Assembly: GCA_947468275.1 (NCBI GenBank)
Contig: CANIKO010000002.1
Span: 105,363-169,362 of the forward strand
Direction of reading: 5' to 3'
Source: Bacteroidota bacterium
GTDB taxonomy: Bacteria > Bacteroidota > Bacteroidia > NS11-12g > UBA9320
Length of the DNA: 64,000 nt
Shown: in pieces, positions 3,064-27,635 of the stretch
Position numbering within the stretch: the stretch's first letter is position 1
Layout of the letters: every line of letters begins with the position of its first letter
Made by a program: the position numbers and the translations under genes
Notes under the pieces: generated by a model
What the model was told of the DNA's origin: nothing
The model's input: only the letters and a program-made list of their open reading frames with translations
Databases searched by the model: none

Positions 3064-4251
3064 TTATTTTTTTAATAAATGAACCTCGACTAAATCACCT
3101 TGTCTAAAATCCATTCTATCTTCATCCAATTGAATAATACAATCTGCAAAAGCAAAAGAACTCATTTGGTAGGATTCCTGAGCATTTAAAGGTGTTACAC
3201 CGTTTCCCTCTATTTTCCCTTTAATAAAAAAAGTTAAGCCTGCCTTTTTAACAAATGGAGTTTCCAATGGAAGGAAAATTTTTATTGTAGAATCCACATC
3301 AAATCCCATCATTTTCATTATTGAAGGAACAACGTACTCGTAATAACAAGTTAAGGTTGCCGCCGGGTTTCCAGGCAAGCCAAAAATTAAAGTAGAGTTA
3401 ACCTTTCCAAAATAAAGTGGTTTTCCTGGCTTTTGCTTTACTTTGTGAAAAAGACATCGTGCACCGGAATTATTAAGTGCTTTAGCCACAAAATCATAAT
3501 CACCTACCGACACACCTCCTGAAATAAGGAGTATATCACATTTAGAAAGATTGCTTTTAATAGAATCCGTTATTCCTTGTTCGTCATCGTCAATACAGAT
3601 GATGTTTTGTGGCTCAATATTCAATTCACTTAAGGCAGCATTTAAACTGTAGGAGTTACTTTCATATACTTTTCCTGGCACCAATGATTGGCCGGGTTTT
3701 ATTAATTCTTTTCCTGTATTAATAATACAAACTTTTGGAACATTAAATACCTTCACTTTATCAAAACCCAAACCAGCTAAAAATCCGGAGGCTCCAGGTC
3801 TAATTATAGTCCCCGCCTTTAAAGCCAAACCCCCTTTAGCAGTTTGAGAACCTTTTAGTCGAATATTCAAACCCTTTTTTAGATGTTCATCATTTATATA
3901 AAGTTGATTTGAATTCACTGTGACTTTTTCCTGTATTACCACCGTATCGCATCCTTCAGGAATTTGAGAACCAGTAAAAATCCTAATTGCAGAATTTGGT
4001 AAAAGTTGGTGGGGAGGAAAAACACCTGCAGGAATTTCACCAACAATTGAAAGACTTTTATTTTCATTTAAATCTTCAAATCTTAAACCATAACCATCCA
4101 TGGCAGACTGATTAAAGGATGGAACATCTATCGTTGCAAACACATCTTCAGCTATCACCAAACCCGTTGCATCATATAATGGTATTATATGTGTACCTAA
4201 CAAATCTGTATTTTCTAATACTATTTTTTTTGCCTCTGAAACTGAAATCAT
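3064..4251 (-). CDS. moeA: Molybdopterin molybdenumtransferase MoeA
   Basis: 395 aa with the MoeA/gephyrin-E domain pattern (GDYDFV, SGGVSVGDYD, LPGNPAA). Confidence 0.85.
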   Translation of the reverse strand: MISVSEAKKIVLENTDLLGTHIIPLYDATGLVIAEDVFATIDVPSFNQSAMDGYGLRFEDLNENKSLSIVGEIPAGVFPPHQLLPNSAIRIFTGSQIPEGCDTVVIQEKVTVNSNQLYINDEHLKKGLNIRLKGSQTAKGGLALKAGTIIRPGASGFLAGLGFDKVKVFNVPKVCIINTGKELIKPGQSLVPGKVYESNSYSLNAALSELNIEPQNIICIDDDEQGITDSIKSNLSKCDILLISGGVSVGDYDFVAKALNNSGARCLFHKVKQKPGKPLYFGKVNSTLIFGLPGNPAATLTCYYEYVVPSIMKMMGFDVDSTIKIFLPLETPFVKKAGLTFFIKGKIEGNGVTPLNAQESYQMSSFAFADCIIQLDEDRMDFRQGDLVEVHLLKK

Positions 4252-4395
4252 CTAGTTAGTTTAGAAATGATGTATTGCCAAGATATGATAGTCTCTTTGA
4301 GTTGGATAAGTTCATTTTTACGATGCAAAGTACACTATTATTCATGTTCTTTTTTTGTAAAATTGAAAAATATTTTTGAAAAGGATATTAAAATA

Positions 4396-4428
4396 AAAAG
4401 GCCTTTTGCTAATGCAAAAGGCCTTTTT
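4396..4428. terminator. Bidirectional rho-independent terminator
   Basis: ggccttttgc-taat-gcaaaaggcc perfect hairpin flanked by A-run and T-run on both strands; sits just downstream of the minus-strand gene 4446..6149. Confidence 0.6.
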
Positions 4429-4445
4429 AAAATTTGAGAATTAAA

Positions 4446-6149
4446 TTATTTTATTATCAATTTTTCTACAGCAATACCTTGATCTGTTGCAACACTCATA
4501 ATATATAAGCCTTGTTTTAGATTTAAGGATGAAATGGTATAGTTTGAATTATTAACAAGTGATTGAAAAACTACTTTACCGGAAATATCAGTTATTGAAA
4601 CTGAATTTATCATTTCTTTATAGCTAATAGTTACACTATTTGCAGCAGGGTTAGGATAAATACTTACACCAGTTACTTTCGCTGATTTTACAGCTAAGTC
4701 ACTCGCAGAAATAAGTCCCATAGCAAGCGCTATACGTGGAGTCATATAACCATGAATGGTATCCTGATATAATTTTGATTTAGCCTTGCTCATATCTGTA
4801 TTGCTCGTTAATGAATTCTTGTGTGCAGTAAATCCAGCAGGTGCTCCTAATGGTTGGGCAAGTGCTTCTTTAGAATTTGGATCCCACCATTGGTAAGGTG
4901 AAGCTTGGTTATCATATTCTTTAGCGGCAACAGGTAATAAAAATGGGTACATACCTTCTCCATTTCGTATTGTAATCTTATCCGTAGCAAGTGGAATATA
5001 ATCAACTGTTCTGTTATATAAAGAACGCGCTTTTATAGTATAAGGATCTTTACTAGGTATAGCAGCAAAAAGTGCATTATTTCCAAGACGCTGAGCTCTA
5101 GCAATGGCATTATTAGCACCATCCACATCCACCACAGTTTGCAGAGATGAAGGCACAACGACTAATCCGTAACCAAATGGAGCAAATGGATCACGTACAC
5201 ACTGCATGGAAATAACAGGTGCATCACCGGCCTCTAACCATGTGGTATCGGCTAATGCGCCACCTAAAGTACCTACTGCTTTAATTTTTGTACCTTGTGC
5301 TCTTTTGCCCAAGTAGCCATATAAATTAAATTTCCCTCTTGAACCATCTATCCATCCAAAATTAGCAGTATCTATATAACCTTTAAATTTTGGTAAATCC
5401 ATAAACTCAGGATATTTATCGCATGAATTATAGGCCTGTGCAATGTATGAGCCAGTACCTTCACCCACTAGGGCAATATTTGAACTATCCAAATTATAAG
5501 TATTAGCCATACTTTTAACTACTCTTACGGCTTCTTTTACATCATGCATTGAACGGTATACAGCATTAAGCAAAGTGCCTCTTCTTCCATCAAGTGTAGT
5601 AGCAACTGGATTCCAACCTAAGCGATAATCAATTGCTATTGCTACAAACCCACGTCTGGCAAATCCTCTACATAAATCTCTAACTATACTATCCGATTTA
5701 TCACCGCAAGGACTACCGTTATAGGCTCCTGGAGGTAAAAAATTACCAGTATGTAAATAAATTATAACGGGTCTTTTAGGTCCTCCCGTTTCATCAGGCA
5801 TATAGGCATCCATTGTCAAGGTTGTTACCTTTAAATAAGTTGAATCTCCTGACCCAACACCTCTAGGATATCTATATTTCATTGGAATTTCAGATGTTTT
5901 ACCCGTCTTAACTTTAGCAATTAGAAATGGTAATTCAACACCGAACATAATAGGAGCTTTTGCAGGGTCAGTTGCATCCGTTGCAAAAGTTGTCATATAA
6001 AGCCAGTTTAAATTAGTAGCATAAGGAATCCCCTTAGCTTCGACAAGTTTGGTAAATACTTCGTTTTTGTAACGAAGCGGCGTTTGTGCTGAAGCATTAT
6101 ATGCCAAGCATCCTGCCAAGAAAATTAATGTAAGTGTAATTTTTTTCAT
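4446..6149 (-). CDS. Secreted alpha/beta-hydrolase-fold (esterase/lipase-like) protein with T9SS C-terminal sorting domain
   Basis: Signal peptide ...NASAQ; VIIYLHTGNF (HGG-like oxyanion motif); C-terminal ~80 aa beta-sandwich tail (SIYPNPAANSVTISY...GLYIMSV) typical of T9SS cargo. The nucleophile elbow is atypical (VGEGTGSY). Confidence 0.5.
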   Translation of the reverse strand: MKKITLTLIFLAGCLAYNASAQTPLRYKNEVFTKLVEAKGIPYATNLNWLYMTTFATDATDPAKAPIMFGVELPFLIAKVKTGKTSEIPMKYRYPRGVGSGDSTYLKVTTLTMDAYMPDETGGPKRPVIIYLHTGNFLPPGAYNGSPCGDKSDSIVRDLCRGFARRGFVAIAIDYRLGWNPVATTLDGRRGTLLNAVYRSMHDVKEAVRVVKSMANTYNLDSSNIALVGEGTGSYIAQAYNSCDKYPEFMDLPKFKGYIDTANFGWIDGSRGKFNLYGYLGKRAQGTKIKAVGTLGGALADTTWLEAGDAPVISMQCVRDPFAPFGYGLVVVPSSLQTVVDVDGANNAIARAQRLGNNALFAAIPSKDPYTIKARSLYNRTVDYIPLATDKITIRNGEGMYPFLLPVAAKEYDNQASPYQWWDPNSKEALAQPLGAPAGFTAHKNSLTSNTDMSKAKSKLYQDTIHGYMTPRIALAMGLISASDLAVKSAKVTGVSIYPNPAANSVTISYKEMINSVSITDISGKVVFQSLVNNSNYTISSLNLKQGLYIMSVATDQGIAVEKLIIK

Positions 6150-16396: not shown

Positions 16397-16804
16397 CTAC
16401 GGTTTAATAATTCCTTTATCCTTCAAAAGTTGAACCAATTCCGTAATATTTAGTGGTTTTGTCAAAAAAGCTATTACGGAAGGATATTTTAAGACTTTTT
16501 CATTATCACTCATTAGTATACTAGAGGAAAGCATAATAATATTAGTTTTTTCACGATTTTCAATTGGAAGTGTATTATATAGTTCCAAAAACTCAAAACC
16601 ATCCATTATCGGCATATGGATGTCAAGTAATATTAAATTAGGCCAATCTGCAGCACTTGCACTATGAAGATATTGGAATGCTTCATGAGAATCTTCAAAT
16701 TTTGTTGTTTTATTGGCAAGCTTATGAGCCTCAATAAATTTTTTATTAAGAAATAAATCTATAACATTATCATCAATCAACATTATAGAAAGATTATTTA
16801 TCAT
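16397..16804 (-). CDS. Stand-alone response-regulator receiver (REC) protein
   Basis: 135 aa; LMIDDNVID...LLDIHMPIMDG...; no output domain. Confidence 0.8.
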   Translation of the reverse strand: MINNLSIMLIDDNVIDLFLNKKFIEAHKLANKTTKFEDSHEAFQYLHSASAADWPNLILLDIHMPIMDGFEFLELYNTLPIENREKTNIIMLSSSILMSDNEKVLKYPSVIAFLTKPLNITELVQLLKDKGIIKP

Positions 16805-17886
16805 GGATTAATTTTATTTGGAATTATTATTTCAAAAGTAGTACCAACATGAGGAGTTGAGGTCACGGATATCGTACCTCCTATTTTATCTAATGATTCT
16901 TTTACAATATATAAACCGATACCTGACCCTTGCTTATTATTTGAAATTTGTGCACGATAGAACATTTTAAATATATTAGGCAGATGTTCAGGATTAATAC
17001 CTATTCCGCTATCTATAATTTGCAAATTAACCGATTCATTTTCGCTAACTATTTTAACCGTTACGGTATGTTGCTCCGAACTAGGCTTTCGATACTTAAT
17101 GGCATTTGATATAATATTTATCAAGATAACTCTTAATCGAAATGAATCACCAATAAATTCGCCTTTTTGTTTAACATCAGTCACAAACTTTATGGAATGA
17201 TCCTGATTTTTAAGCATATCAATTATTTCATGCAAAAGTTCATTAAAATTTAAATTTTCCAGTGATTCATCTGACCTGGAATTCTGATAATAATCAATAA
17301 TATTCCGAATATATTTATCTAATTTAAGAACACTATTTTCAATAATATCAAAGTATTCCTGATCTAAACTATCATCCATTTTGGCAAGTTGTACTACACC
17401 TAATATTGACATAAGTGGAGAACGGAGGTCATGCGAAGCACTATAAATAAAACGATTTAGTTCATCGTTAGTTTTCAGTAATTCTGTATTTTTCAATTTC
17501 AATTCTACACGACTTTTATAAATGTCGCTGCAGTTTTCCATTATCAAATTCAACTTTTCCCAATCCCAAGGTTTTTGAACATATTTGTTTACTTGCCCTC
17601 TATTTATAGCATCTATAACAGAATCTAAGTCGGCATGACCAGTAATTAATAATCGAACCGCGTCAGGATATATATCAATTGTTTTTTCTAAAAACTCAAT
17701 ACCAGTCATTACCGGCATTTTCTGATCGGTAATAATTATATTAATTTCAATATCCTTAAGCAAGCCAAAGGCTTCTAGAGCACCTTTGGCTGTATAAATC
17801 TGATACTGTCTTTTAAAATAAGCCTGAAATGATATCAGATTATTTTCTTCATCATCTACGTATAATACTTTTAGTTTTTCTAACAT
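16801..17886 (-). CDS. Hybrid REC-histidine kinase (N-terminal receiver, then HisKA and HATPase_c)
   Basis: VLYVDDEENNLISF...ITDQKMPVMTG (REC); H-box SHDLRSPL; N/G boxes ...NAIKY..., DSGIGI, GSGIGL. Confidence 0.8.
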   Translation of the reverse strand: MLEKLKVLYVDDEENNLISFQAYFKRQYQIYTAKGALEAFGLLKDIEINIIITDQKMPVMTGIEFLEKTIDIYPDAVRLLITGHADLDSVIDAINRGQVNKYVQKPWDWEKLNLIMENCSDIYKSRVELKLKNTELLKTNDELNRFIYSASHDLRSPLMSILGVVQLAKMDDSLDQEYFDIIENSVLKLDKYIRNIIDYYQNSRSDESLENLNFNELLHEIIDMLKNQDHSIKFVTDVKQKGEFIGDSFRLRVILINIISNAIKYRKPSSEQHTVTVKIVSENESVNLQIIDSGIGINPEHLPNIFKMFYRAQISNNKQGSGIGLYIVKESLDKIGGTISVTSTPHVGTTFEIIIPNKINP

Positions 17887-17897
17887 CTATTTTAATT

Positions 17898-20063
17898 TTA
17901 AGACAGAATAATATGAAGATTCATTGGCAATATTATTGTGATTTTAGTGCCAATTCCTGGTTCACTCATTATATCAATTTTTCCATGATGACTTTCCATT
18001 ATTCCAAATACAATCGACATTCCTAATCCTGTTCCTTCTCCAACATCTTTTGTAGTAAAAAATGGTTCAAATATCTTAGCCTGCACTTCTAGTGTCATCC
18101 CAGGTCCAGTATCTTCTACCGACACGCAAATAGTTTCATCTTTTACAAAACTAGAGATCGTAAGCCTGTGTTTTTCTTTTGTAGTGTCTTTATCCATGGC
18201 TTGAATTGCATTATTTATGATATTCATAAATACCTGATTTAACTTACCAGGATAGCATTCAATTTTAGGAATTTCTCCAAAGTGTTTAACAATCTCAATA
18301 TTAGGAGGTGTTATGCTTTTTAATAACACCATAGTAGACTCAATTCCTTGGTTTATATCAGCGAGTTTAATATCACTTGCATCCAAATGTGCAAAATTCT
18401 TTAGTCCTTTTACTATTTCGGCTGTTCTTTTAGCCCCATCTTCAATACCTGCGAGTAATGAATTAATTTCTTTTTTAACATAATCGATATCGATCTCTTT
18501 TTTGAATGATTCAATAGAAGTTAATTTTTCAGCTAAATTATCTTCAATGTTGATAGCTTCATATTTAGATAGAACTTCAAAAATATCAGCGATATCTAAT
18601 TGAAGTGGCTTAACATTGGCACTAACAAAGTTAATAGGATTATTAATTTCGTGCGCAATACCAGCCGTTAGCTGACCAAGAGATGCCATTTTCTCAACAG
18701 ACACTAATTGAGACTGTGCTTCCTTTAAATCAGTGATAGCTACTCCTAATTCATTGTTTTTAACTTCTAATTCCTCGGTTCGAACTAATACTTTTTGTTC
18801 TAATACAATATTTTGTTCTTTAATTAGTTTTTCATTTTCTTCTAAAGCCATTACTACCTCTGCCTGAGATAACTCTTTATCTTTTTTCAAGATATTAATA
18901 CGATCAGCAAGGGCAAATGACAGCAAAATAACCTCAATACCAGAACCAAACTGCATGGTATAGCGTGTTATATTATTATATGGCAAAATATGAAGATCTT
19001 TTAAAACAAATATTATAACTCCCGCCAAAAAAACAGACCATCCAATTAAAAAGAATCGTGCTTCTTGATTTCCTTGCCTGTATATTACTATACCAACAAT
19101 TAACATGAAGATGGAAACAGAAGAAGCTGTTATTGACATCAGTTTATAACTTAAACCATATTGCCCAGTGAAACTCATAAATATGGCAATTAGATATAAA
19201 ATTGTAAACAGAAAGGAGGAGTTGTAAACTTTTAAATTTCGGTTTTTTAGTTTTAAAAAATCTTTAAAAAACTCTAAACCGGCAATGCCTGCCAAAGAAG
19301 GAAAAAGAAATTGACTATGTATTTGTAACCAAGGTAAATTGGGCCAAATAAACTGAAATGGCAGCCCCATATTACTCGTTTGGGCTAACAATACGAATAC
19401 AATGTAAAATGAGTATACCAAATAGCTTTTTTCTCTAACGGCCCCGAAAATGAATAGGTTATACAGCAACATCACAATCATGATACCTATATAAATCCCC
19501 ACCGCAATATTTTTATATCCTGAAAATTCAAAAGTTGACTTGCTAGAGCCCATAAAAATTGGGAGCTGTAATATTTCCTTGGAAGTAATTTTTAAATAAT
19601 ATGTTTTCTCAGAACCATTTTCAATATTTATATCAAATAAATAATCAGGGGTAGAATATTGCCGCAATTTGAAAGACTGATATTCTCCCATTGAACTTGC
19701 GCAGTATTTATTAGTTTTTAAATCATTAAAATAAAATGTAACCTTATCTAAAATTGGCTGATTAACTTGTATAATAAGGTTATTTTCAGTCGAAATATTC
19801 TTAATTGTAATTCGAACCCAAAACGTAGAGGTTGACATTCCTAAATCTGGTACATCCTTTTCACTTCTCTTGAAATTTTTTGATTTTAAAATTTCGTCTA
19901 TGGTTAAATTATTGGTTTTATCTTCTAACAGATAAATATTTTTACCAATTTGTAAATTTCGAGTTGCATCGGAATAAATAACTTGTGCAAATAAGTTATT
20001 TGAAAGTCCAACTAATATCAATAAAACGACTAAAATACTTGAATATTTATTTTTTTCAATCAT
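17898..20063 (-). CDS. 7TMR-DISM sensor histidine kinase (periplasmic DISMED2-like domain, 7TM, HisKA, HATPase_c)
   Basis: Signal peptide, ~170-aa extracytoplasmic domain, seven predicted TM helices, coiled coil, H-box AHEINNPINF, ATPase motifs NAIQAM, DTGPGM, GTGLGM. Confidence 0.85.
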   Translation of the reverse strand: MIEKNKYSSILVVLLILVGLSNNLFAQVIYSDATRNLQIGKNIYLLEDKTNNLTIDEILKSKNFKRSEKDVPDLGMSTSTFWVRITIKNISTENNLIIQVNQPILDKVTFYFNDLKTNKYCASSMGEYQSFKLRQYSTPDYLFDINIENGSEKTYYLKITSKEILQLPIFMGSSKSTFEFSGYKNIAVGIYIGIMIVMLLYNLFIFGAVREKSYLVYSFYIVFVLLAQTSNMGLPFQFIWPNLPWLQIHSQFLFPSLAGIAGLEFFKDFLKLKNRNLKVYNSSFLFTILYLIAIFMSFTGQYGLSYKLMSITASSVSIFMLIVGIVIYRQGNQEARFFLIGWSVFLAGVIIFVLKDLHILPYNNITRYTMQFGSGIEVILLSFALADRINILKKDKELSQAEVVMALEENEKLIKEQNIVLEQKVLVRTEELEVKNNELGVAITDLKEAQSQLVSVEKMASLGQLTAGIAHEINNPINFVSANVKPLQLDIADIFEVLSKYEAINIEDNLAEKLTSIESFKKEIDIDYVKKEINSLLAGIEDGAKRTAEIVKGLKNFAHLDASDIKLADINQGIESTMVLLKSITPPNIEIVKHFGEIPKIECYPGKLNQVFMNIINNAIQAMDKDTTKEKHRLTISSFVKDETICVSVEDTGPGMTLEVQAKIFEPFFTTKDVGEGTGLGMSIVFGIMESHHGKIDIMSEPGIGTKITIILPMNLHIILS

Positions 20064-20766
20064 TCGATTTTATTTTATAAATCAAGTCATATTCAACCTC
20101 TACCTCGGTTTCTAAATAGATTTCAGTGGTTGTCTGAACTGGAATATCCCTCAATGACAACATCCGATTTTTATCATATTCATTTGCACTGGCAAGCGTT
20201 TCTGCATTCATTATACCTAATACTCTGGTAATATAATTATCATTAGGATAAGGGTATTCCCCCTTTAGCCCAAGATTAGGATTGACAATAAAACCTACCC
20301 GTTTAAACATCTCCATGGTGTATTCGGCACAAATGCCCATAAGGGTTTCAAACTTTAATTGATTGGTAGTTGATATCCCAGCCCTTGTCAACAATACACT
20401 TATTCCTATACCCGCTACTTTCTTAGAATTCCATAATCCACAAAGTTCGCCAATGCCACCATTTACTCTAAAATTTTTCACAATATCAAAAATAATGGGA
20501 TCCATCTTACCAATAGCTTTCTCTATTGGTAGATAGTTGTTTTCATCAGATATTTGAGCTCTAATGCCACCCACTATTTCACCAGTAGATTTAACTTCAG
20601 CTACAACACCATAGATGTTAGGATTTATCATCCATTCATTGTTATTGGTAGAGATATTAGTAACATTATAATCTTTCAAAACAGACACATGTCCTTCGAT
20701 ATACCTCATACAGGTATCTGGCTCATCCACAGCCCTAAAGGCCCTAAAAATTAATTTTTCATTCAT
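20056..20766 (-). CDS. Hypothetical protein with GNAT-acyltransferase-like motifs
   Basis: 236 aa; KKVAGIGISVLLTRAGI (motif-A-like) and YTMEMFKRVGFIV (motif-B-like Y..F.K.GF). Translationally coupled to both neighbours. Fold assignment is by eye only. Confidence 0.35.
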   Translation of the reverse strand: MNEKLIFRAFRAVDEPDTCMRYIEGHVSVLKDYNVTNISTNNNEWMINPNIYGVVAEVKSTGEIVGGIRAQISDENNYLPIEKAIGKMDPIIFDIVKNFRVNGGIGELCGLWNSKKVAGIGISVLLTRAGISTTNQLKFETLMGICAEYTMEMFKRVGFIVNPNLGLKGEYPYPNDNYITRVLGIMNAETLASANEYDKNRMLSLRDIPVQTTTEIYLETEVEVEYDLIYKIKSND

Positions 20767-23068
20767 TATTCCACTTGTAAAATGCCGCCTCCAATGGTCT
20801 TCTTACCGACTTTATTTTGGGAGTATCAGCCTTAGTTAATCTAAAAATCATTATATCACCGTTTCCAGGTGTTAATTTTAATATTTCTTCAAATTTAGGC
20901 CTTATGGCCCATAATTTTTTTTGCCCTTTCTCACTTATATTTTCTCCTTTTCCAAGCATTAATCGATTGTAAACAAACAACGATGCCGTAATCGGTTGAA
21001 ATGCCAAATCAATTAAATTTGCTTTTAACCAAACGCGTTCAATAATCCGACCTCCATTAAAATAATCGGTAAGACTTTGACCTGACATAGAAAGGATACC
21101 TACAGCGCCAGCAGAATCAACTAACTTTTTCGTTAATTTATTAAACGCTGCCCCGCCATTCCATTCATTTAATAATTCTATGACTCCAGCATTTTGAGCT
21201 ATTTTCAATCCCGCTTTTTCTGGATTGGTTAATTCCACAGTCCGAATATCCACACCATCTCGTCGCTGGTCATTTTCCTCTTTCGTCCATCTCATTTCAT
21301 CTGAAAAATCTGCTTGCCCTGCTTTTTCCAAAAGTCTAATAATTTCAAGTTCTCCAAGAATTTCACCAATATTAAATAAGTCTTCATCACTCGTAAAAAA
21401 ACGAAGATTGGCACCTTCCATCTCGTTGGCCACACTTATTAATTCTTGTAATTTTTCACTTTCTATATTTGGCCGCTTTACTATATTTCTATTTGTATGT
21501 CGAATCTCAATGGCCTCGGCTAAATTAAGAAGTTTAGGATCGGTTGCTTTTTCGGGAAAAAACTTCACTTGGGCAACCAATTGTTTAATATTTTTATCTG
21601 GAAATACTTCGATTTTTGAATCCAAATGCAATTGTTTGGCCTTAAGTACAGCATTTTCAATAGCCGAACCAAGTGCAAGGCAAGCTGAAACATTTCCGTA
21701 ACCTAAAAACACCTCACTTCCTTCTAGAGCATAATAAGCCAATAATGTATTATTCTTCAATGCAAATTTCCAAGGCTGATAATTGCCTCCTGAAGGCGCA
21801 AGAATTGCGGCCTTAACAATTTGACTAACTTCTGAATCACTCAATGAGGCCTGTCCACTTTCTAATTCAATATTAATATTGTTTGTAATGCCTACAACAT
21901 CGGTATACTCATAAGGATCAACCCAAACATAAGGTTCCATTTCAGGCTTTTTATCCCCAATTAGCTCTTCTATATCAATATGGTAACGTCCTGATTCAGA
22001 GAATTGTTTCAATAAAATTCGCCGACTAACATCGGCTGTAATGCCCCCTCCCATTGCTACTGAACTGGCTAATTGTGGCCATGTATTAATGGATTGCTCA
22101 ATTTCCAACATCGATGCCTTAATTCGCAGCGAAGAGGTTTCTAAACCTAAGATATCTAAAATATATGGAAACTTTTCTTCATTAGTTTTTAAATTTTTAA
22201 GGGTATCCAAATCAAGATGATCAACCAATCCGTGCAATACACTGCGATTAGGCTCTAAATCAAATCGTTCAACATCTACCATACAACGATCACTGGTCTC
22301 CATAATTACAGCTATTCCAAGCTCTCTTGCCTTATAACGACTTAATATTTTTATTTCAAAACCATCCGATTCCTCAATCAGTAAATCAAGCTTTCCTCCA
22401 TCGAGAAAAAAGGATTCCATATTTGACTCTTGAAGTCCTTCTAAAAAACAACTCACCTTTATAAAAGGATCAATTTCGGCAATTTCTCTTGCCACAACAT
22501 TTACCTTATAGGTACCTAGGTTATGAATGCCTGTTCGTATTCTATTATAATTAGTGAGCTCTAAAATATCAAAATCGGCTAATCTAATTTCGCTGCAACT
22601 TCTTTCCATTGCAATGGTTATCGCTACCGATTGGCCAACAGAAAGGCCCACGACCCCTATTATTTTTTTTCTTAGTATTTCGCGTTCTTCTTTGGTTATT
22701 TTATATTGGTTTCTGTTGGTTCTAATCTCAATAAATTCCTCTTCATCTGGTATATGAACCAATCTGTTGGACCAAGGATAATACACCCACACCCCGTATT
22801 CTTCTATTGATAATGGTTCAATATGTTTATAGGTTGCTTCAATTAATTCGTCATCAGTGAATTTTTTAGATGGATATTTTATTTTAATTAATTGCTTAAC
22901 TTGATCAAATAAAAAATCACAAACAATTATTCCAGGAGTCAATAATAATTGCTCAAGGTTTTCCTTTTGTTTTAAATCTCCAATTCGGTAAAACAAAGGT
23001 TTTACCAATAAATCGTTTTTAATCTGTTCTTGTCTGTTCTTTAATAGTATATCGCTCAATCGTGTCAT
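20759..23068 (-). CDS. E1-like (ThiF/MoeB-family) domain fused to tandem nitroreductase-family domains
   Basis: 769 aa; IIGVVGLSVGQSVAITIA...IRLADFDILELTNYNRI aligns to the MoeB motif in this same window (GAGGLGCP...VDFDVVDLTNLHRQ). Downstream is ILAPSGGNYQPWKF, a nitroreductase FMN motif, plus a second nitroreductase-like half. Confidence 0.7.
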   Translation of the reverse strand: MTRLSDILLKNRQEQIKNDLLVKPLFYRIGDLKQKENLEQLLLTPGIIVCDFLFDQVKQLIKIKYPSKKFTDDELIEATYKHIEPLSIEEYGVWVYYPWSNRLVHIPDEEEFIEIRTNRNQYKITKEEREILRKKIIGVVGLSVGQSVAITIAMERSCSEIRLADFDILELTNYNRIRTGIHNLGTYKVNVVAREIAEIDPFIKVSCFLEGLQESNMESFFLDGGKLDLLIEESDGFEIKILSRYKARELGIAVIMETSDRCMVDVERFDLEPNRSVLHGLVDHLDLDTLKNLKTNEEKFPYILDILGLETSSLRIKASMLEIEQSINTWPQLASSVAMGGGITADVSRRILLKQFSESGRYHIDIEELIGDKKPEMEPYVWVDPYEYTDVVGITNNINIELESGQASLSDSEVSQIVKAAILAPSGGNYQPWKFALKNNTLLAYYALEGSEVFLGYGNVSACLALGSAIENAVLKAKQLHLDSKIEVFPDKNIKQLVAQVKFFPEKATDPKLLNLAEAIEIRHTNRNIVKRPNIESEKLQELISVANEMEGANLRFFTSDEDLFNIGEILGELEIIRLLEKAGQADFSDEMRWTKEENDQRRDGVDIRTVELTNPEKAGLKIAQNAGVIELLNEWNGGAAFNKLTKKLVDSAGAVGILSMSGQSLTDYFNGGRIIERVWLKANLIDLAFQPITASLFVYNRLMLGKGENISEKGQKKLWAIRPKFEEILKLTPGNGDIMIFRLTKADTPKIKSVRRPLEAAFYKWNNE

Positions 23069-23322
23069 AAACCTAATTAATTATAGTAGAATTTCGGGCA
23101 AATAAAATACCTATAATCCACATTTAATCAACCATTAATATGAGTGTGACCAATAAAATTGAAAATAACTTTTTAATACATTTTTGTAACATTTTTTTGT
23201 TGCAAAACATTTTTTATAATTATATTTGAATTATGATATTTGTTTTTAAATAGAAATATCAATATAAACATTATATAAAATGATACTATTGGTAAAATTT
23301 TATATAAATAAAAAAAGAAAAA

Positions 23323-23790
23323 TTGGAAGAAAATCAGAAAATTCACGTCTTATATGTAGATGACGAAGAAAACAATTTAATTGCTTTCAAGGCATCATTT
23401 AGACGTGATTTTACAATATTTACTGCTATTTCTGCATTGGAAGCTAAAGAAATATTGGCCAAAAATGAGATCCATATTCTTATTACCGATCAAAGAATGC
23501 CTGTAACCACTGGTTCGGAACTTTTGGCGCAAGCCGTTAAAGATTACCCTGATCAGATAAGAATACTTCTTACCGGTTTTTCAGACATGGAAGCATTAAA
23601 GGATGCCATTAACTTAGGACAAATTTATTGCTATTTACAAAAACCATGGAATGACGAGGAGCTTAAAACTACAATAAACAAAGCCTTTGAAATTTACCGC
23701 ACAAAACGCGAAAAAGATGAATTAACAGGGACATTAAAAACTTCGAATGAACAACTTGAATTTTATTTAAGGCAAAAACTTTTGTCTTAA
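23323..23790 (+). CDS. Stand-alone REC protein, paralog of the REC domain in the hybrid kinase
   Basis: 155 aa; HVLYVDDEENNLIAF...ITDQRMPVTTG...YLQKPW, about half identical to the N-terminus of 16801..17886. Confidence 0.8.
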   Translation: MEENQKIHVLYVDDEENNLIAFKASFRRDFTIFTAISALEAKEILAKNEIHILITDQRMPVTTGSELLAQAVKDYPDQIRILLTGFSDMEALKDAINLGQIYCYLQKPWNDEELKTTINKAFEIYRTKREKDELTGTLKTSNEQLEFYLRQKLLS

Positions 23791-23791
23791 T

Positions 23792-25087
23792 TTATCTCGA
23801 ATTTCGATAAAATTCATTAATCAATATAACCGACTCATTTAGCTCTTCTTTATTAGTATCAGGCAAAGATTGCATCTTGGTATAGTTGAATAATATCTTA
23901 TCTATTTTTTCTAATGAAACCTTGCTTAAGTAAGCTAATTTCGTTTTATCTTCGGTATTATTATTCTTTAAATTAATACCAAATTTTGTTCTTATAAAAT
24001 TGAAAAAATAACGAAATTTTTGCTCTGCTATGTTTTTGTGATTACCATCGGCCAAGTATAACTTTGTGATGGTTTGAGCAAATTCAATTGAAGTATTCTT
24101 GTTTTTTCCAATAACCAAAATTGACCTTTGTTTTCGTTTAAAACTAAATATACTGAACAAAATAATAGCTCCTAAAAAACTATACCATGCATACTGGAAT
24201 GAACGAAACGAAAGCAAAACCTCAAATGGACTTTCATTAGTTTTTGCTTCATTATCTATTACCCCTTCACTTGCAAAAGTATTGACATGCCAGTAGATAT
24301 TTCCAGGTTCAAGATGTAAAAACACCTTTTGAGCATATATAAAAACATCTTTTTTGCGAAGATAATAATTAGTAAAAACTAATGGTGAGGCATATAAATG
24401 CAACCACCCTTCGCCCACCTTTATTTTGATATAATTGGTATATTTTTCATGATCTGATAATTCAAGATTGCCAATTTTATAATAATCATAGTCTAAATTA
24501 TTCAATGATTGGTTTTCAAAAAATTCTTCAGAAAAATAACCCGCTTGCATTGGAATATAAGTTTGAAGATACTTAAGTTTAATAATAGGCGTGTCATTAA
24601 GTTTAAGTCCAGGATGCAACAATTGCAATTTGTATTGCATGCATTGAATTTGTGATAAAGCATTAGCCGAACTATTTACCGATTTTAATTCAGGCCGAAG
24701 CATACTATCCAAAAAATACTCAGATACTTCGTTTGATGCGATAAAAACCTGATTACCTTTTCTAATGAAATCATATAATGACGAAACGGTTGATTGATCA
24801 GGGACAAAACTGTATCCACTATAAAAATAGATATTATTCTTGCTCTTAAGAGTATTAAAATCGCTATTGTATCTTAGGGGTTCTTCTATTTTTATAAAGT
24901 CCTTTTCAGGATATAGACTCTTTGTAAGTTTAAATAACAACTCATTTCCATAGGGTGAACCACTGGATTGATTATAATTTTGACTCCAATTATAAGTAGG
25001 ACTTTTACTGTACAGATAATAAAAAAAAGCAGCTAAGCAAATCAATACAGAGAAAGCAATAAGAATGGGCCATTTTTTTTTAAACAT
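23792..25087 (-). CDS. Hypothetical membrane-anchored protein (DUF4350-like architecture)
   Basis: N-terminal TM, large soluble region, C-terminal TM (WYSFLGAIILFSIFSF); family call is from memory of architecture only. Confidence 0.3.
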   Translation of the reverse strand: MFKKKWPILIAFSVLICLAAFFYYLYSKSPTYNWSQNYNQSSGSPYGNELLFKLTKSLYPEKDFIKIEEPLRYNSDFNTLKSKNNIYFYSGYSFVPDQSTVSSLYDFIRKGNQVFIASNEVSEYFLDSMLRPELKSVNSSANALSQIQCMQYKLQLLHPGLKLNDTPIIKLKYLQTYIPMQAGYFSEEFFENQSLNNLDYDYYKIGNLELSDHEKYTNYIKIKVGEGWLHLYASPLVFTNYYLRKKDVFIYAQKVFLHLEPGNIYWHVNTFASEGVIDNEAKTNESPFEVLLSFRSFQYAWYSFLGAIILFSIFSFKRKQRSILVIGKNKNTSIEFAQTITKLYLADGNHKNIAEQKFRYFFNFIRTKFGINLKNNNTEDKTKLAYLSKVSLEKIDKILFNYTKMQSLPDTNKEELNESVILINEFYRNSR

Positions 25088-25790
25088 ACTGATTGGTATC
25101 TAATACTAAAAAAGCTTGTTTAAAAAGTTTATCAATCGACTGATAATGAAACTCATCTATCAAACTATCGCCATACCATACTGATTCATAAATTAGTGCT
25201 AACTGCCTAAAATACCAGTGTATTTCACTCCCCAAAATCTGCTGAGTATAGTCCCTATTCGTACTTTCTCGCTTCCATTTTATATATTTTTTTTGGTTTA
25301 ATAATTGAAGGAACGTTAAAAAATTTAATCGTGTGGCCAATCTATAATCTCCATTTTTTAAAGCTCCAATTAATAATTGGTCAATTTCAAGGTCGTTTAT
25401 ATCTTCAGGTTCATTTAGGATATCAAAGTTTACCGATTTTTTTTGAAGAGACTTATTGCCCAAAAAACCATTGCGAACTAATAAGTAAACAACTAAAGCT
25501 ATTAATAAAAAAATCAGGAGGTATGCCACTAAACTCAAAAATGCAGAACTGCCTGAGAAAAAAGGTTTTCCAAGATTTGGAGTCCTACTTTTTGTTTTAT
25601 TTAATTTTGGCGTTTTATATTTATAATCCTCTTTTAGTTTTTCCCAACGCTTGTTATCCAAGCTATTTCCACCTGGTTTACTTTGCAAATAATCGTTAGT
25701 AACATCGGCTGAATAACCTTGATTGAATGATAAGATAAATATTAAAACAAGGTTCCACCTTAAATTTAAAAGATTATTTAATGCCTGCAT
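25080..25790 (-). CDS. Hypothetical single-pass membrane protein (DUF4129-like architecture)
   Basis: Signal/TM, central TM (LVAYLLIFLLIALVVYLLV), C-terminal soluble domain. Confidence 0.3.
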   Translation of the reverse strand: MQALNNLLNLRWNLVLIFILSFNQGYSADVTNDYLQSKPGGNSLDNKRWEKLKEDYKYKTPKLNKTKSRTPNLGKPFFSGSSAFLSLVAYLLIFLLIALVVYLLVRNGFLGNKSLQKKSVNFDILNEPEDINDLEIDQLLIGALKNGDYRLATRLNFLTFLQLLNQKKYIKWKRESTNRDYTQQILGSEIHWYFRQLALIYESVWYGDSLIDEFHYQSIDKLFKQAFLVLDTNQYV

Positions 25791-25811
25791 TCAGTAATTA
25801 TAATTTAATCC

Positions 25812-27635
25812 TTATTTTGACCATACTTTTTCTAAGCGGGCTTTTAAGCCACTGCCGGTTATTTTTTCTTTTGCACTAAAATAATGCAATGTATTACCAA
25901 ATAAATACAAGGGCAACATTACAAAAAGCAGCGCCATACCAACAATTAAAACAGCCAATTTCTCTAATTCATTTATCATCGGACCTGACAATTTCAATCC
26001 GTTACTTATGGCTTCGATAATAAAATTAAGAATGGGAGATGAAACAGAAAGATAAAAAATAAACAATAGAATGAGTAGGGTTAAATTGAGAACGGCATTT
26101 GCTAAAATTGTTTTAAAGAAATTTTTTATTCCAGGAATAATACCAAATAATCCAGCATTAAATATTCCCGAATTCATAGAAATACAAAGCGGGAAGATTA
26201 CAAAAAAATATAAGATAAAGTAAAAAATTCCATCACAATAAAAATAAGAGCCCAGTGTTAAAAACATGAAATACCAGGAACCTATAAATCGAATTAATTT
26301 ACTCCTGGAGGATAAATAATTCTTACTCTGTTTGAAAAAAAAATAACCTTGAAACAAAACCGGAAACATTGAAAACAGAACCACAAAAACTGGCCAGATC
26401 TTGTAATATCCATCTCTAAACCATACGTTTATTTTTAAAAGTTTTATTATTTCAAAAATATTATCGGGCACCCCAAAAAACTGATATTCCAAATGCCGCG
26501 ATTGAGAAAAATAAAGTGCAATAATCATTACAGTGCTTAGTAATAAAGAGGATTTAATTATTACTCCAATATACCTCTTCCACACTCTAAATGTATCCGC
26601 AACCACTTCCCCGGCAGTTTTAATATCATCCAATACAATTTCATAAGGGGGATTAGGGGGCAACTCATTTTCTTCAATCAGATGCCCGGCTTTGCTAAAC
26701 TTATACCATGGCAGCCAAACAAAATAAAACAATATAAAAAAAAGTGAGCTTATAATTAATAAAGCTTTTAGATAAAGCGGGGCGTTGGATTGACCTGTAA
26801 TAAATGCTTCGATAAATGCGGCAGTAAGGGTTAGCGGGATTACTGTAAAAAGAATTTTGATACCCTTGATGGCTGAAATACGGAAAGCTTGGCCTCGCGA
26901 ATAAGTGCCGGGAAAAAGTAAACCTTTGCCAAATATCAAACCTGCTGTGGCCGATAATATCATGGTAAATATTTCTAATGTGCCATGCAGCCATATCGTT
27001 AATACTGTAAATGTGAAATAACCTGTTCCATAAAAAAAATACTGAAACACTCCTACCATCACTCCGTTGTAGGCCAAAACAAACAAGGTGCCTATGGCAA
27101 AAAACAAACCAGTTACAAAAGTTAGCATATCCACCCGCAGGTTATTGTAGGCAATTCGAAAGAATGAGGAAAGTTTATCCCCTTCGGCATACACATTCAT
27201 AGGTTTTCCTTCTTTAATATTTTGGTTGGTCATTTCTACATATTGGTCGCCCAATATTTGGCGGGCAAACCCCGGCTGATGCCTGCTACTAAACACTCCT
27301 ACTATAAATGTGAGAACAAATACAAAAAAACAAACTAGCAACTCCTTGCGGGCCGAATACATAATGGCGGGAAATTCTTCTTTAAAAAATTTGCTTAAAA
27401 ACGATTGTTTTCGTTTTCTATTGGTATAAAGCTTTAAAAAAACCTGTTGTGCCAATCCGTTTAAATACACCCTTACCGAGCGGTTGGGATAAAAAGACCG
27501 TGAATAAGAAAGGTCATCGGTTACTTGAATAAATAAATCATTGAGTTCATCAGGCTGTGTTGATTTACCTTTCAACACCGTTTCATAATGTTTCCAATTT
27601 TCTTTGTTTTGGTTTATGAAGGATGATTCTTTCAA
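25812..27635 (-). CDS. Stage II sporulation protein M-like (DUF95) polytopic membrane protein with extended C-terminal membrane domain
   Basis: 607 aa; N-terminal half resembles SpoIIM/DUF95 (VLAYNGVMVGVF..., IFTMILSATAGL, AAFIEAF); the C-terminal half adds ~6 more TM helices. Confidence 0.4.
   Translation of the reverse strand: MKESSFINQNKENWKHYETVLKGKSTQPDELNDLFIQVTDDLSYSRSFYPNRSVRVYLNGLAQQVFLKLYTNRKRKQSFLSKFFKEEFPAIMYSARKELLVCFFVFVLTFIVGVFSSRHQPGFARQILGDQYVEMTNQNIKEGKPMNVYAEGDKLSSFFRIAYNNLRVDMLTFVTGLFFAIGTLFVLAYNGVMVGVFQYFFYGTGYFTFTVLTIWLHGTLEIFTMILSATAGLIFGKGLLFPGTYSRGQAFRISAIKGIKILFTVIPLTLTAAFIEAFITGQSNAPLYLKALLIISSLFFILFYFVWLPWYKFSKAGHLIEENELPPNPPYEIVLDDIKTAGEVVADTFRVWKRYIGVIIKSSLLLSTVMIIALYFSQSRHLEYQFFGVPDNIFEIIKLLKINVWFRDGYYKIWPVFVVLFSMFPVLFQGYFFFKQSKNYLSSRSKLIRFIGSWYFMFLTLGSYFYCDGIFYFILYFFVIFPLCISMNSGIFNAGLFGIIPGIKNFFKTILANAVLNLTLLILLFIFYLSVSSPILNFIIEAISNGLKLSGPMINELEKLAVLIVGMALLFVMLPLYLFGNTLHYFSAKEKITGSGLKARLEKVWSK

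Follow-up and report, generated by a model that had tools for sequence, protein, structure and literature searches.

What does an E1-like adenylating domain do when three of the four glycines of its nucleotide-binding loop are replaced and the domain is fused to a flavoenzyme? The question is raised by a gene found at positions 20759–23068 of a 64,000-nucleotide stretch of DNA (hereafter the window, i.e., the whole stretch that was analysed) from a Bacteroidota bacterium (GenBank assembly GCA_947468275.1, contig CANIKO010000002.1, positions 105,363 to 169,362 of the forward strand). An earlier note on this DNA had proposed a divergent, possibly substrate-specific adenylating or scaffolding E1. 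The open reading frame (ORF) is real and belongs to the minus strand, where it starts with an ATG and encodes 769 amino acids arranged as an N-terminal domain, a ThiF-like cyclase domain and a flavin-dependent oxidase (FDO) domain in one chain; the plus-strand reading of the same interval was rejected, its frames being full of stops. Below, we argue that this trzS-like gene and the gene that follows it, which encodes a 236-residue acyltransferase-like protein (p236), probably specify an acyl-oxazolone pathway of the TrzAS type. Features lie on the minus strand unless indicated otherwise.

Family membership and domain structure

The 769-aa protein matches the NCBIfam equivalog NF005901 (“Rv1355c family protein”) with 757.5 bits, for a cut-off of 476 (E = 1.4e-227). 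The match is end-to-end (query residues 18–762 on model positions 7–717 of 722), so that a single defined family accounts for the two catalytic domains together with the N-terminal extension. The protein also shows 32% identity over 681 aa (E = 5e-111) to a 715-aa protein of M. haemophilum, itself located in the gene order EAL protein/242-aa protein/ThiF fusion, as are Rv1357c–Rv1356c–Rv1355c. By its sequence, the gene is a Bacteroidota member of the Rv1355c/TrzS family. Rv1355c, formerly “MoeY”, was recently renamed TrzS and reconstituted (Kleetz et al., J Biol Chem 2025, PMC12856293). Briefly, TrzA (Rv1356c) N-acylates L-tryptophan from short acyl-CoAs, while TrzS catalyses an ATP-dependent cyclisation, then an O2-dependent desaturation, which yields an N-acyl tryptazolone; the purified M. 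smegmatis TrzS is yellow and has the absorbance peaks of flavin mononucleotide (FMN) (PMC12856293). The family, its architecture and its chemistry are thus already known (2021–2025), the Bacteroidota gene being a phylogenetically distant member, and the earlier note had overlooked this name and this biochemistry, as well as the partner acyltransferase encoded by the next gene. With TrzS, the window protein shares the three-part architecture, the NF005901 family, a GLS[VA]G loop and the equivalents of D217, R540 and Q651 (see below), from which it differs by a sequence identity of only ~32% and by an N-terminal domain ~16 residues longer, including helix 72–83.

The family is large: a word-indexed search collected 4176 proteins, 1160 cluster representatives were retrieved at E <= 1e-30, and a single genome scan that paired the loop pattern G[VI][IV]GLSVGQS with a second motif of the family gave at least 597 confirmed relatives. 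Public sources name these proteins “MoeB-like”, “tRNA t6A dehydratase” or “molybdopterin/thiamine adenylyltransferase”, annotations that the designation “TrzS-type acyl-oxazolone synthase” should replace. Regarding taxonomy, the TrzS network is described as more than 50% Actinomycetota (PMC12856293), Pseudomonadota, Actinomycetota and Planctomycetota are the phyla listed as sources of N-acyl tyrosine-type compounds (PMC12479983), and Bacteroidota members go unmentioned in the supplementary text of two JBC papers.

At face value, the historical “MoeY” annotation of Rv1355c, along with weak matches of the window protein to ThiF and MoeB models, might suggest a housekeeping paralogue of MoeB or ThiF, activating a ubiquitin-like sulfur carrier for molybdopterin, thiamin or a thio-cofactor. 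These matches, however, amount to 17–54 bits for the MoeB, ThiF and TcdA models, far under NCBIfam cut-offs of 152–647, so that membership in MoeB/ThiF fails. Moreover, the window already contains a bona fide MoeB at 948–2069, which carries GAGGLGCP and DFDVVDLTNLHRQ, as the earlier note had reported, clears the cut-off of the MoeB subfamily NF004281 (281 vs 266 bits) and has a C-terminal rhodanese region. A MoaE-like gene (502–945) lies directly downstream of it, and together the genes at 502–2069 make up a molybdopterin synthase pair of the usual kind, with no relation to the trzS-like gene. No small MoaD/ThiS-like ORF ending in GG was found in or beside the operon of the trzS-like gene, nor any CxxC motif, whereas the fusion to an FDO domain and the coupling to an acyltransferase are conserved and biochemical work has established oxazolone synthesis as the activity of the family. 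The idea of a housekeeping sulfur-carrier activator, which the earlier note had itself dismissed, is effectively refuted.

Pfam recognises a ThiF domain at residues 123–270 of the protein and gives a short Nitroreductase match at residues 409–437, to which the Acg-family model NF047509 adds a partial match. In the AlphaFold2 model (mean pLDDT 87.2, pTM 0.73), two domains stand out, one ThiF-like and one Acg-like. The first (residues 109–375; 21944–22744) is delineated by Pfam, by Foldseek and by an hhalign comparison of the family ThiF profile with the window MoeB (probability of 96.7%). Its matches in the PDB are AclA (9egb), then UBA5, ThiF (1zud, 1zfn), TcdA, MccB, MoeB (1jw9) and PaaA, all with a Foldseek probability of 1.0, so the Rossmann/E1 fold that the earlier note had supposed is indeed present in the model. 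The closest solved structure, AclA of Tenacibaculum discolor (E = 1.3e-7, TM-score on target 0.72), likewise comes from a member of the Bacteroidota and was solved with its substrate, but it is a single-domain protein of ~250–265 aa, with 16% identity to the window domain. Three structures of AclA (9egb, 9egc and 9egd) display the ThiF fold, 9egb having been released in August 2025, and a literature search for the function of AclA found no paper.

A linker (residues 376–405; 21854–21943), poorly conserved and modelled with a pLDDT of 62–66 (<50 at residues 379–383), leads to the FDO domain (residues 406–765; 20774–21853). The best Foldseek match of the latter is Acg of M. smegmatis (2ymv; E = 1.3e-14, TM-score on target 0.81), a structure that phmmer also retrieves, and it includes the FMN motif PSGGNYQPWKF (21764–21796). 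FDOs of the Acg type are monomers that mimic a nitroreductase homodimer and have a single active site. This single-chain, pseudo-dimeric fold accounts for the “two nitroreductase-like halves” that had been noticed in the sequence.

As for the N-terminal extension, which had been estimated at ~130 aa, its actual length is ~108–115 aa, since Pfam ThiF begins at residue 123 with profile position 9 and the Arg-finger motif RTNRNQ occupies residues 116–121. It folds in the model as an alpha/beta domain (residues 1–108; 22745–23068; pLDDT ~84–96) composed of helices 2–19, 32–41, 53–64 and 72–83 and of strands 25–27, 48–51, 93–97 and 102–106. No Pfam or PDB sequence match was obtained for this domain. 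Its WVYYPW..H hairpin is conserved in the actinobacterial members, which are devoid of ~16 residues around helix 72–83. Between residues 32 and 106, the predicted order of the elements (helix–strand–helix–helix–hairpin) is reminiscent of a winged helix.

Such an order, even if limited to topology, and the presence of MccB and PaaA among the structural matches could be expected from an enzyme of the type that modifies ribosomally synthesised and post-translationally modified peptides (RiPPs), in which an MccB/PaaA-like E1 would be combined with a SagB-like dehydrogenase and with an N-terminal domain that recognises peptides. Yet, in the 254-nt gap upstream of the trzS-like gene, the small ORFs are AT-rich noise and none is a conserved precursor-peptide ORF, there is no YcaO gene, and the conserved neighbour is instead a GNAT resembling N-acyl amino acid synthases. 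Moreover, the actinobacterial members do without part of the putative recognition domain. A RiPP-type function is therefore highly improbable.

The nucleotide-binding loop and the catalytic residues

The motifs quoted in the earlier note are all found in the protein, i.e., GVVGLSVGQS (residues 138–147; 22628–22657), DFDILELTNYNRI (residues 165–177) and PSGGNYQPWKF (residues 425–435). Regarding the first of them, the claim was that the glycine-rich segment is altered in comparison with MoeB. The segment does lie on the nucleotide-binding loop, according to both the alignments and the secondary structure of the model, but the register implied there, with G138 as the first glycine, is three residues off. 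Three alignments (phmmer/HMMER against human UBA5, hmmsearch of the 151-sequence family ThiF profile against the window MoeB, and hhalign of the latter pair) agree on an ungapped pairing of kvgvvG141-L-S143-V144-G145-Q146 with KVLVIG-A-G-G-L-G of MoeB. In this register, G141 is separated from D165 by 24 residues, which is the spacing between the first glycine and the aspartate of the DFD motif in MoeB and UBA5. Furthermore, strand beta-1 spans residues 136–140 and the next helix starts at residue 142 in the AlphaFold2 model, which puts G138 within the strand and G141 at the turn; the register starting at G138 was rejected on both grounds. It follows from the pairing that one of the four GxGGxG glycines is kept (G141), while the second, third and fourth correspond to S143, V144 and Q146 (or His), and that an extra invariant glycine (G145) occupies an “x” position.

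Is such a loop the product of decay, as the word “degenerate” used in the earlier note would have it? The conservation was examined in a set of 151 sequences, composed of 150 representatives of 50%-identity clusters (35–53% identical to the query) and the window protein. In this set, G141, S143 and G145 are each found in 150 sequences, L142 in 147 and V144 in 144. Outside Bacteroidota, the loop and the active site were checked in the orthologue from the syntenic locus of M. haemophilum and in three proteins of the Rv1355c family encoded on actinobacterial plasmids, standing in for the TrzS of M. smegmatis and M. tuberculosis. The loop reads VGVVGLSAGH in M. haemophilum, IGVAGLSVGH in M. dioxanotrophicus, VGIVGLSVGS in R. 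qingshengii and IGVGGLSVGH in Mycolicibacterium sp. TY66, and GLSVG recurs in the fusion proteins that combine a GNAT and a ThiF domain, with or without an FDO domain (see below). From these sequences, GLS[VA]G is a family signature conserved across phyla rather than the outcome of decay, which makes “degenerate” a misleading term. As such, it can serve to recognise the TrzS-type cyclase subfamily, and it suggests that an E1 fold may bind ATP with only one of the four canonical glycines. We have not found the substitution of GLS[VA]G for GxGGxG described in the searchable literature.

Outside the loop, the residues of the ATP site are preserved, with one exception. In ThiF, the contacts to ATP are made by Arg11 (from the partner subunit), Ser66, Arg70, Gln71, Lys83 and Asp127 (PMC12596934). 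Arg11 corresponds to R119 (kept in 146/151 sequences), Ser66 to T172 (Ser or Thr in 141/151), Arg70 to R176 (151/151), Lys83 to K188 (151/151) and Asp127 to D235 (22364–22366; Asp in 151/151), Gln71 being the one that is not retained (I177). Hence, with ThiF and MoeB (e.g., the window MoeB), the protein has in common the E1 Rossmann fold and the residues for ATP, Mg and the Arg finger; it departs from them by the GLSVGQ loop in place of GxGGxG, by the additional N-terminal and FDO domains and presumably by the substrate, a small molecule instead of a protein C-terminus.

Besides, D235 is the equivalent of D217 of M. smegmatis TrzS, one of three residues for which mutants have been published. 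Cyclisation is lost in D217A, and with it every product; in R540A, the intermediate that accumulates is cyclised but still saturated; and product formation is lowered in Q651A, the FMN content of R540A and Q651A being much reduced (PMC12856293). The mutagenic primers in the supplement of this article encode VEEC[D>A]SLD, TDRI[R>A]YLTP and VSV[Q>A]PVSP, and these peptides, combined with an alignment of actinobacterial homologues, allowed us to map D217, R540 and Q651 onto D235, R578 (21335–21337) and Q691 (20996–20998), respectively. All three residues are conserved, the TrzS segment VEECDSLD aligning with IEESDGFE in the window protein.

These data bear on the “scaffolding” half of the earlier proposal, in which the E1-like domain would be a dead scaffold or a substrate-docking module, as is the “C protein” of azoline cyclodehydratases, leaving the flavin domain as the only active part and N-acyl dehydro-amino acids without a ring as products. 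The replacement of three of the four GxGGxG glycines might be read in this way, as might the producers of N-acyl dehydrotyrosine in which ThiF and nitroreductase genes are present but no oxazolone was detected (PMC12479983). Nevertheless, the loss of ATP/Mg residues that marks the docking proteins is not seen here, where R119, R176, K188 and D235 are conserved in 146–151 of the 151 sequences and the phosphate, Mg and Arg-finger positions are near-invariant. In addition, the syntenic orthologue of the ATP-dependent TrzS has the same type of loop, and the D217A mutant of TrzS loses every downstream product. Because both the ATP/Mg residues and the residues mutated in TrzS are conserved, we regard a non-catalytic E1 as very unlikely. 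The other half of the proposal, i.e., a divergent, substrate-specific adenylating E1-like enzyme, is the one that we retain, with the precision that this enzyme is fused to a flavoenzyme.

The partner acyltransferase and the proposed pathway

The gene of p236 (20056–20766), the ATG of which overlaps the stop of the trzS-like gene by 8 nt, encodes a protein of 236 aa that resembles TrzA/OxzA-like N-acyl amino acid synthases of the GNAT type. It is difficult to recognise: Pfam yields nothing beyond noise at E <= 10, no NCBIfam family matches, a profile search of the PDB returns noise as well, and its 374 homologues are all labelled “hypothetical”. In contrast, its AlphaFold2 model (pLDDT 87.5) has a GNAT-type fold that is closest to FeeM and to the acyl-homoserine lactone (AHL) synthases, when most ordinary GNATs score ~12–14 in the fold comparison and the acyl-CoA N-acyltransferase PA0115 reaches 15.6. 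At the sequence level, p236 is 10–12% identical to FeeM and to LuxI-type AHL synthases, from which it differs by a C-terminal beta-hairpin extension (residues 196–227) and by the lack of a Pfam or NCBIfam family.

The link to TrzA comes from the actinobacterial relatives. By tblastn, p236 finds an unnamed 252-aa gene that adjoins the Rv1355c-family gene of R. qingshengii (E = 7e-8). The family of the 252-aa protein spans Mycobacterium, Rhodococcus, Williamsia and Nocardia, some of its UniRef names being GNAT or N-acetyltransferase, and it includes the protein whose gene immediately precedes that of the TrzS orthologue in M. haemophilum. When the p236 family is compared with this actinobacterial TrzA-like family, hhalign returns a probability of 93.3% (E = 2.7e-7) over 164 columns, with VGGIRxQ and YP..Y as shared motifs. 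Taken together, the predicted fold and these alignments identify p236 as the probable TrzA/OxzA-type acyltransferase of the system, albeit by remote homology, and the unnamed neighbour could be annotated as an N-acyl amino acid synthase-like partner. To have a small acyltransferase-like protein without Pfam family next to the synthase, and signalling genes nearby, is a further similarity with TrzS/TrzA. In the searchable literature, we found no description of this Bacteroidota clade or of the unannotated acyltransferase family that belongs to it.

Gene fusions are instructive in this respect. Two metagenomic proteins of 1111–1112 aa combine an N-terminal GNAT-like region (~360 aa) with ThiF and FDO domains, while a plasmid gene of Streptomyces sp. 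NBC_01431 (positions 4128–5996 of the locus) combines such a region with a ThiF domain devoid of FDO and is followed by a gene for a beta-ketoacyl-ACP synthase III. Such an arrangement may belong to another lipid pathway that relies on this cyclase. That a GNAT was joined to the cyclase independently, as the sequences indicate, supports the pairing of the acyltransferase with the cyclase.

Beyond the family membership, fold, conserved catalytic residues, partner gene and operon structure that are observed for this locus, the chemistry that we envision is modelled on the homologous TrzAS, TyzACB and OxzAB systems. First, p236 would N-acylate an amino acid, probably aromatic, from an acyl-CoA or acyl-ACP. 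The ThiF-like domain, binding ATP-Mg through R119, T172, R176, K188, D235 and the G141-L-S143-V-G145 loop, would then adenylate the carboxylate of the N-acyl amino acid, and an attack of the amide oxygen on the acyl-adenylate would close the oxazolone ring. Finally, the Acg-like FMN domain would use O2 to desaturate the C-alpha/C-beta bond, so as to release an N-acyl (dehydro)oxazolone. OxzB/OxzA of Pseudoalteromonas rubra (de Rond et al. 2021, bioRxiv 10.1101/2020.06.11.147165) and TyzB/TyzC/TyzA of M. tuberculosis (PMC10404671) follow the same chemistry, with N-acylation, ThiF cyclisation and desaturation by a nitroreductase-family enzyme. OxzB is also a ThiF–nitroreductase fusion, whereas TyzB and TyzC are separate proteins. 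Published similarity networks separate TrzS from the ThiF subcluster that holds OxzB and TyzB, and they assign the three FDOs to distinct subclusters (A8 for OxzB, A23 for TyzC and A4 for Rv1355c). Homologues of OxzB have been reported from Proteobacteria only (bioRxiv 10.1101/2020.06.11.147165).

Several points weigh against this assignment. To begin with, the identity to the characterised actinobacterial branch is ~32%, so that substrate and product may differ; at this level, neither the amino acid nor the acyl chain can be read from the sequence. All the biochemistry of the family, to which we appeal by analogy, comes from outside Bacteroidota. The link between p236 and TrzA combines a 93% hhalign probability, the fold and the synteny, in the absence of a match to a family HMM, and the fold of p236 is nearly as close to AHL synthases as to FeeM. 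Likewise, the gene order is not that of Mycobacterium, where the acyltransferase is upstream: it is downstream here, although upstream in 27 of 80 Bacteroidota loci. The residues mutated in TrzS were mapped via primer sequences, and the loop was compared in orthologues rather than in the TrzS of M. smegmatis or M. tuberculosis themselves. Finally, the assignment does not account for the N-terminal domain.

The same pair of enzymes might instead make another N-acyl product, e.g., a non-aromatic oxazolone or a lactone-like signal, since p236 resembles AHL synthases as closely as it does amino-acid N-acyltransferases. Against this, R578 and Q691, which were mapped from TrzS and line the predicted FMN/substrate pocket, are conserved, and the score for the NF005901 equivalog is well over the cut-off. 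We hold such a variant to be unlikely, and an acyl-oxazolone pathway of the TrzAS type remains by far our preferred interpretation of the gene pair.

A conserved operon with a sensor-kinase phosphorelay

Downstream of p236, three signalling genes follow in the same direction: a 7TMR-DISM sensor histidine kinase (721 aa; 17898–20063; Pfam 7TMR-DISMED2, 7TMR-DISM_7TM, HisKA and HATPase_c), a hybrid receiver–histidine kinase (361 aa; 16801–17886; Response_reg, HisKA and HATPase_c) and a single-domain response regulator (135 aa; 16397–16804; Response_reg). Between the synthase and the 135-aa receiver, the first two junctions are overlaps of 8 nt each (in the second, the start of the sensor kinase gene covers the stop of p236), the third is an 11-nt gap and the fourth a 4-nt overlap, a spacing from which these five genes can be taken as one translationally coupled operon. 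A divergent single-domain response regulator of 155 aa (RR155; 23323–23790, plus strand; Response_reg) is located on the other side of the 254-nt gap. Pfam identifies no output domain in any signalling protein of the module. A scan for sigma-70 promoters and terminators gave counts at shuffle expectation, but it does not cover Bacteroidota promoters.

The conservation of this context was quantified by tblastn in 80 related loci, all taken from species representatives of GTDB. They are almost entirely labelled as Bacteroidota (Sphingobacteriaceae, Chitinophagaceae, Flavobacteriales and Cytophagales) and include those of the culturable Pedobacter steynii DSM 19110 and Daejeonella lutea DSM 22385, the few metagenome-assembled genomes labelled as other phyla being taken as binning or labelling errors. 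A p236 homologue is directly adjacent to the synthase, on the same strand, in 79 loci (downstream in 52 and upstream in 27), and the 7TMR-DISM kinase is downstream of the pair in 78. The hybrid kinase has a tblastn match of any kind in 74 loci, among which the strong (>200 bits), same-strand matches consistent with the full length amount to 56, many of the weaker ones overlapping the match of the RR155 receiver. A receiver of the RR155 type has likewise any match in 74 loci and is upstream on the opposite strand in 62, while the terminal 135-aa receiver is found in 53. Altogether, RR155, the synthase, p236, the 7TMR-DISM kinase, the hybrid kinase and the 135-aa receiver form a six-gene module (16397–23790) that is conserved across Bacteroidota. 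The complete gene pair is apparently present in hundreds of Bacteroidota genomes, which predicts an unexplored pool of N-acyl lipids in these organisms.

In our opinion, this signalling-operon context is more interesting than the gene itself, and we have not found in the searchable literature a description of such a near-obligatory operon of the synthase pair with a 7TMR-DISM phosphorelay. From the coupling with the kinase genes, it can be expected that the product is probably made under the control of this signalling pathway or feeds into it. A bolder interpretation, which we put forward as a speculative and rather doubtful possibility, is that the synthase pair, the 7TMR-DISM kinase, the hybrid kinase and the receivers constitute a self-contained circuit, in which an N-acyl oxazolone or a related compound would act as a diffusible signal akin to an autoinducer, which the kinase would perceive either directly or indirectly. 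To our knowledge, Bacteroidota are a phylum without LuxI/LuxR. If true, the locus would represent a quorum-sensing-type system in Bacteroidota.

N-acyl oxazolones have been likened to acyl-homoserine lactones, their physiological role having been left open (PMC12856293). The link with a sensor-kinase operon offers a genetically tractable setting in which to address a role of oxazolones in signalling, for example in Pedobacter or Mucilaginibacter.

In Actinobacteria, the neighbours of the family genes are other signalling proteins, i.e., EAL/GGDEF proteins instead of the 7TMR-DISM kinase phosphorelay. The genes adjoin enzymes of cyclic di-GMP (c-di-GMP) metabolism, with an EAL protein in M. haemophilum and a GGDEF protein on the R. 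qingshengii plasmid pdjl-6-4, and the c-di-GMP enzymes Rv1354c/Rv1357c are in the neighbourhood of Rv1355c in M. tuberculosis (PMC12856293). These c-di-GMP neighbours parallel the two-component neighbours of the Bacteroidota members, and, if the circuit proposed above were real, the actinobacterial association would reflect the same signalling role.

Beyond RR155, the window continues with three genes in series (23792–27635), which encode a DUF4350-like protein (431 aa), a DUF4129 protein (236 aa) and, lastly, a SpoIIM-domain protein (607 aa). DUF4350/DUF4129 matches occur in 2 of the 80 loci and SpoIIM-like matches in none, hence these genes are not conserved with the module. On the side of Actinobacteria, several members of the Rv1355c family are plasmid-borne in Rhodococcus and Mycolicibacterium. 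Within 4 kb of the plasmid copies of M. dioxanotrophicus and Mycolicibacterium sp. TY66, neither the PLSDB annotation, which is incomplete, nor tblastn revealed a TrzA/p236 homologue. Both copies are preceded by a divergent cytochrome P450 gene and a TetR regulator gene.

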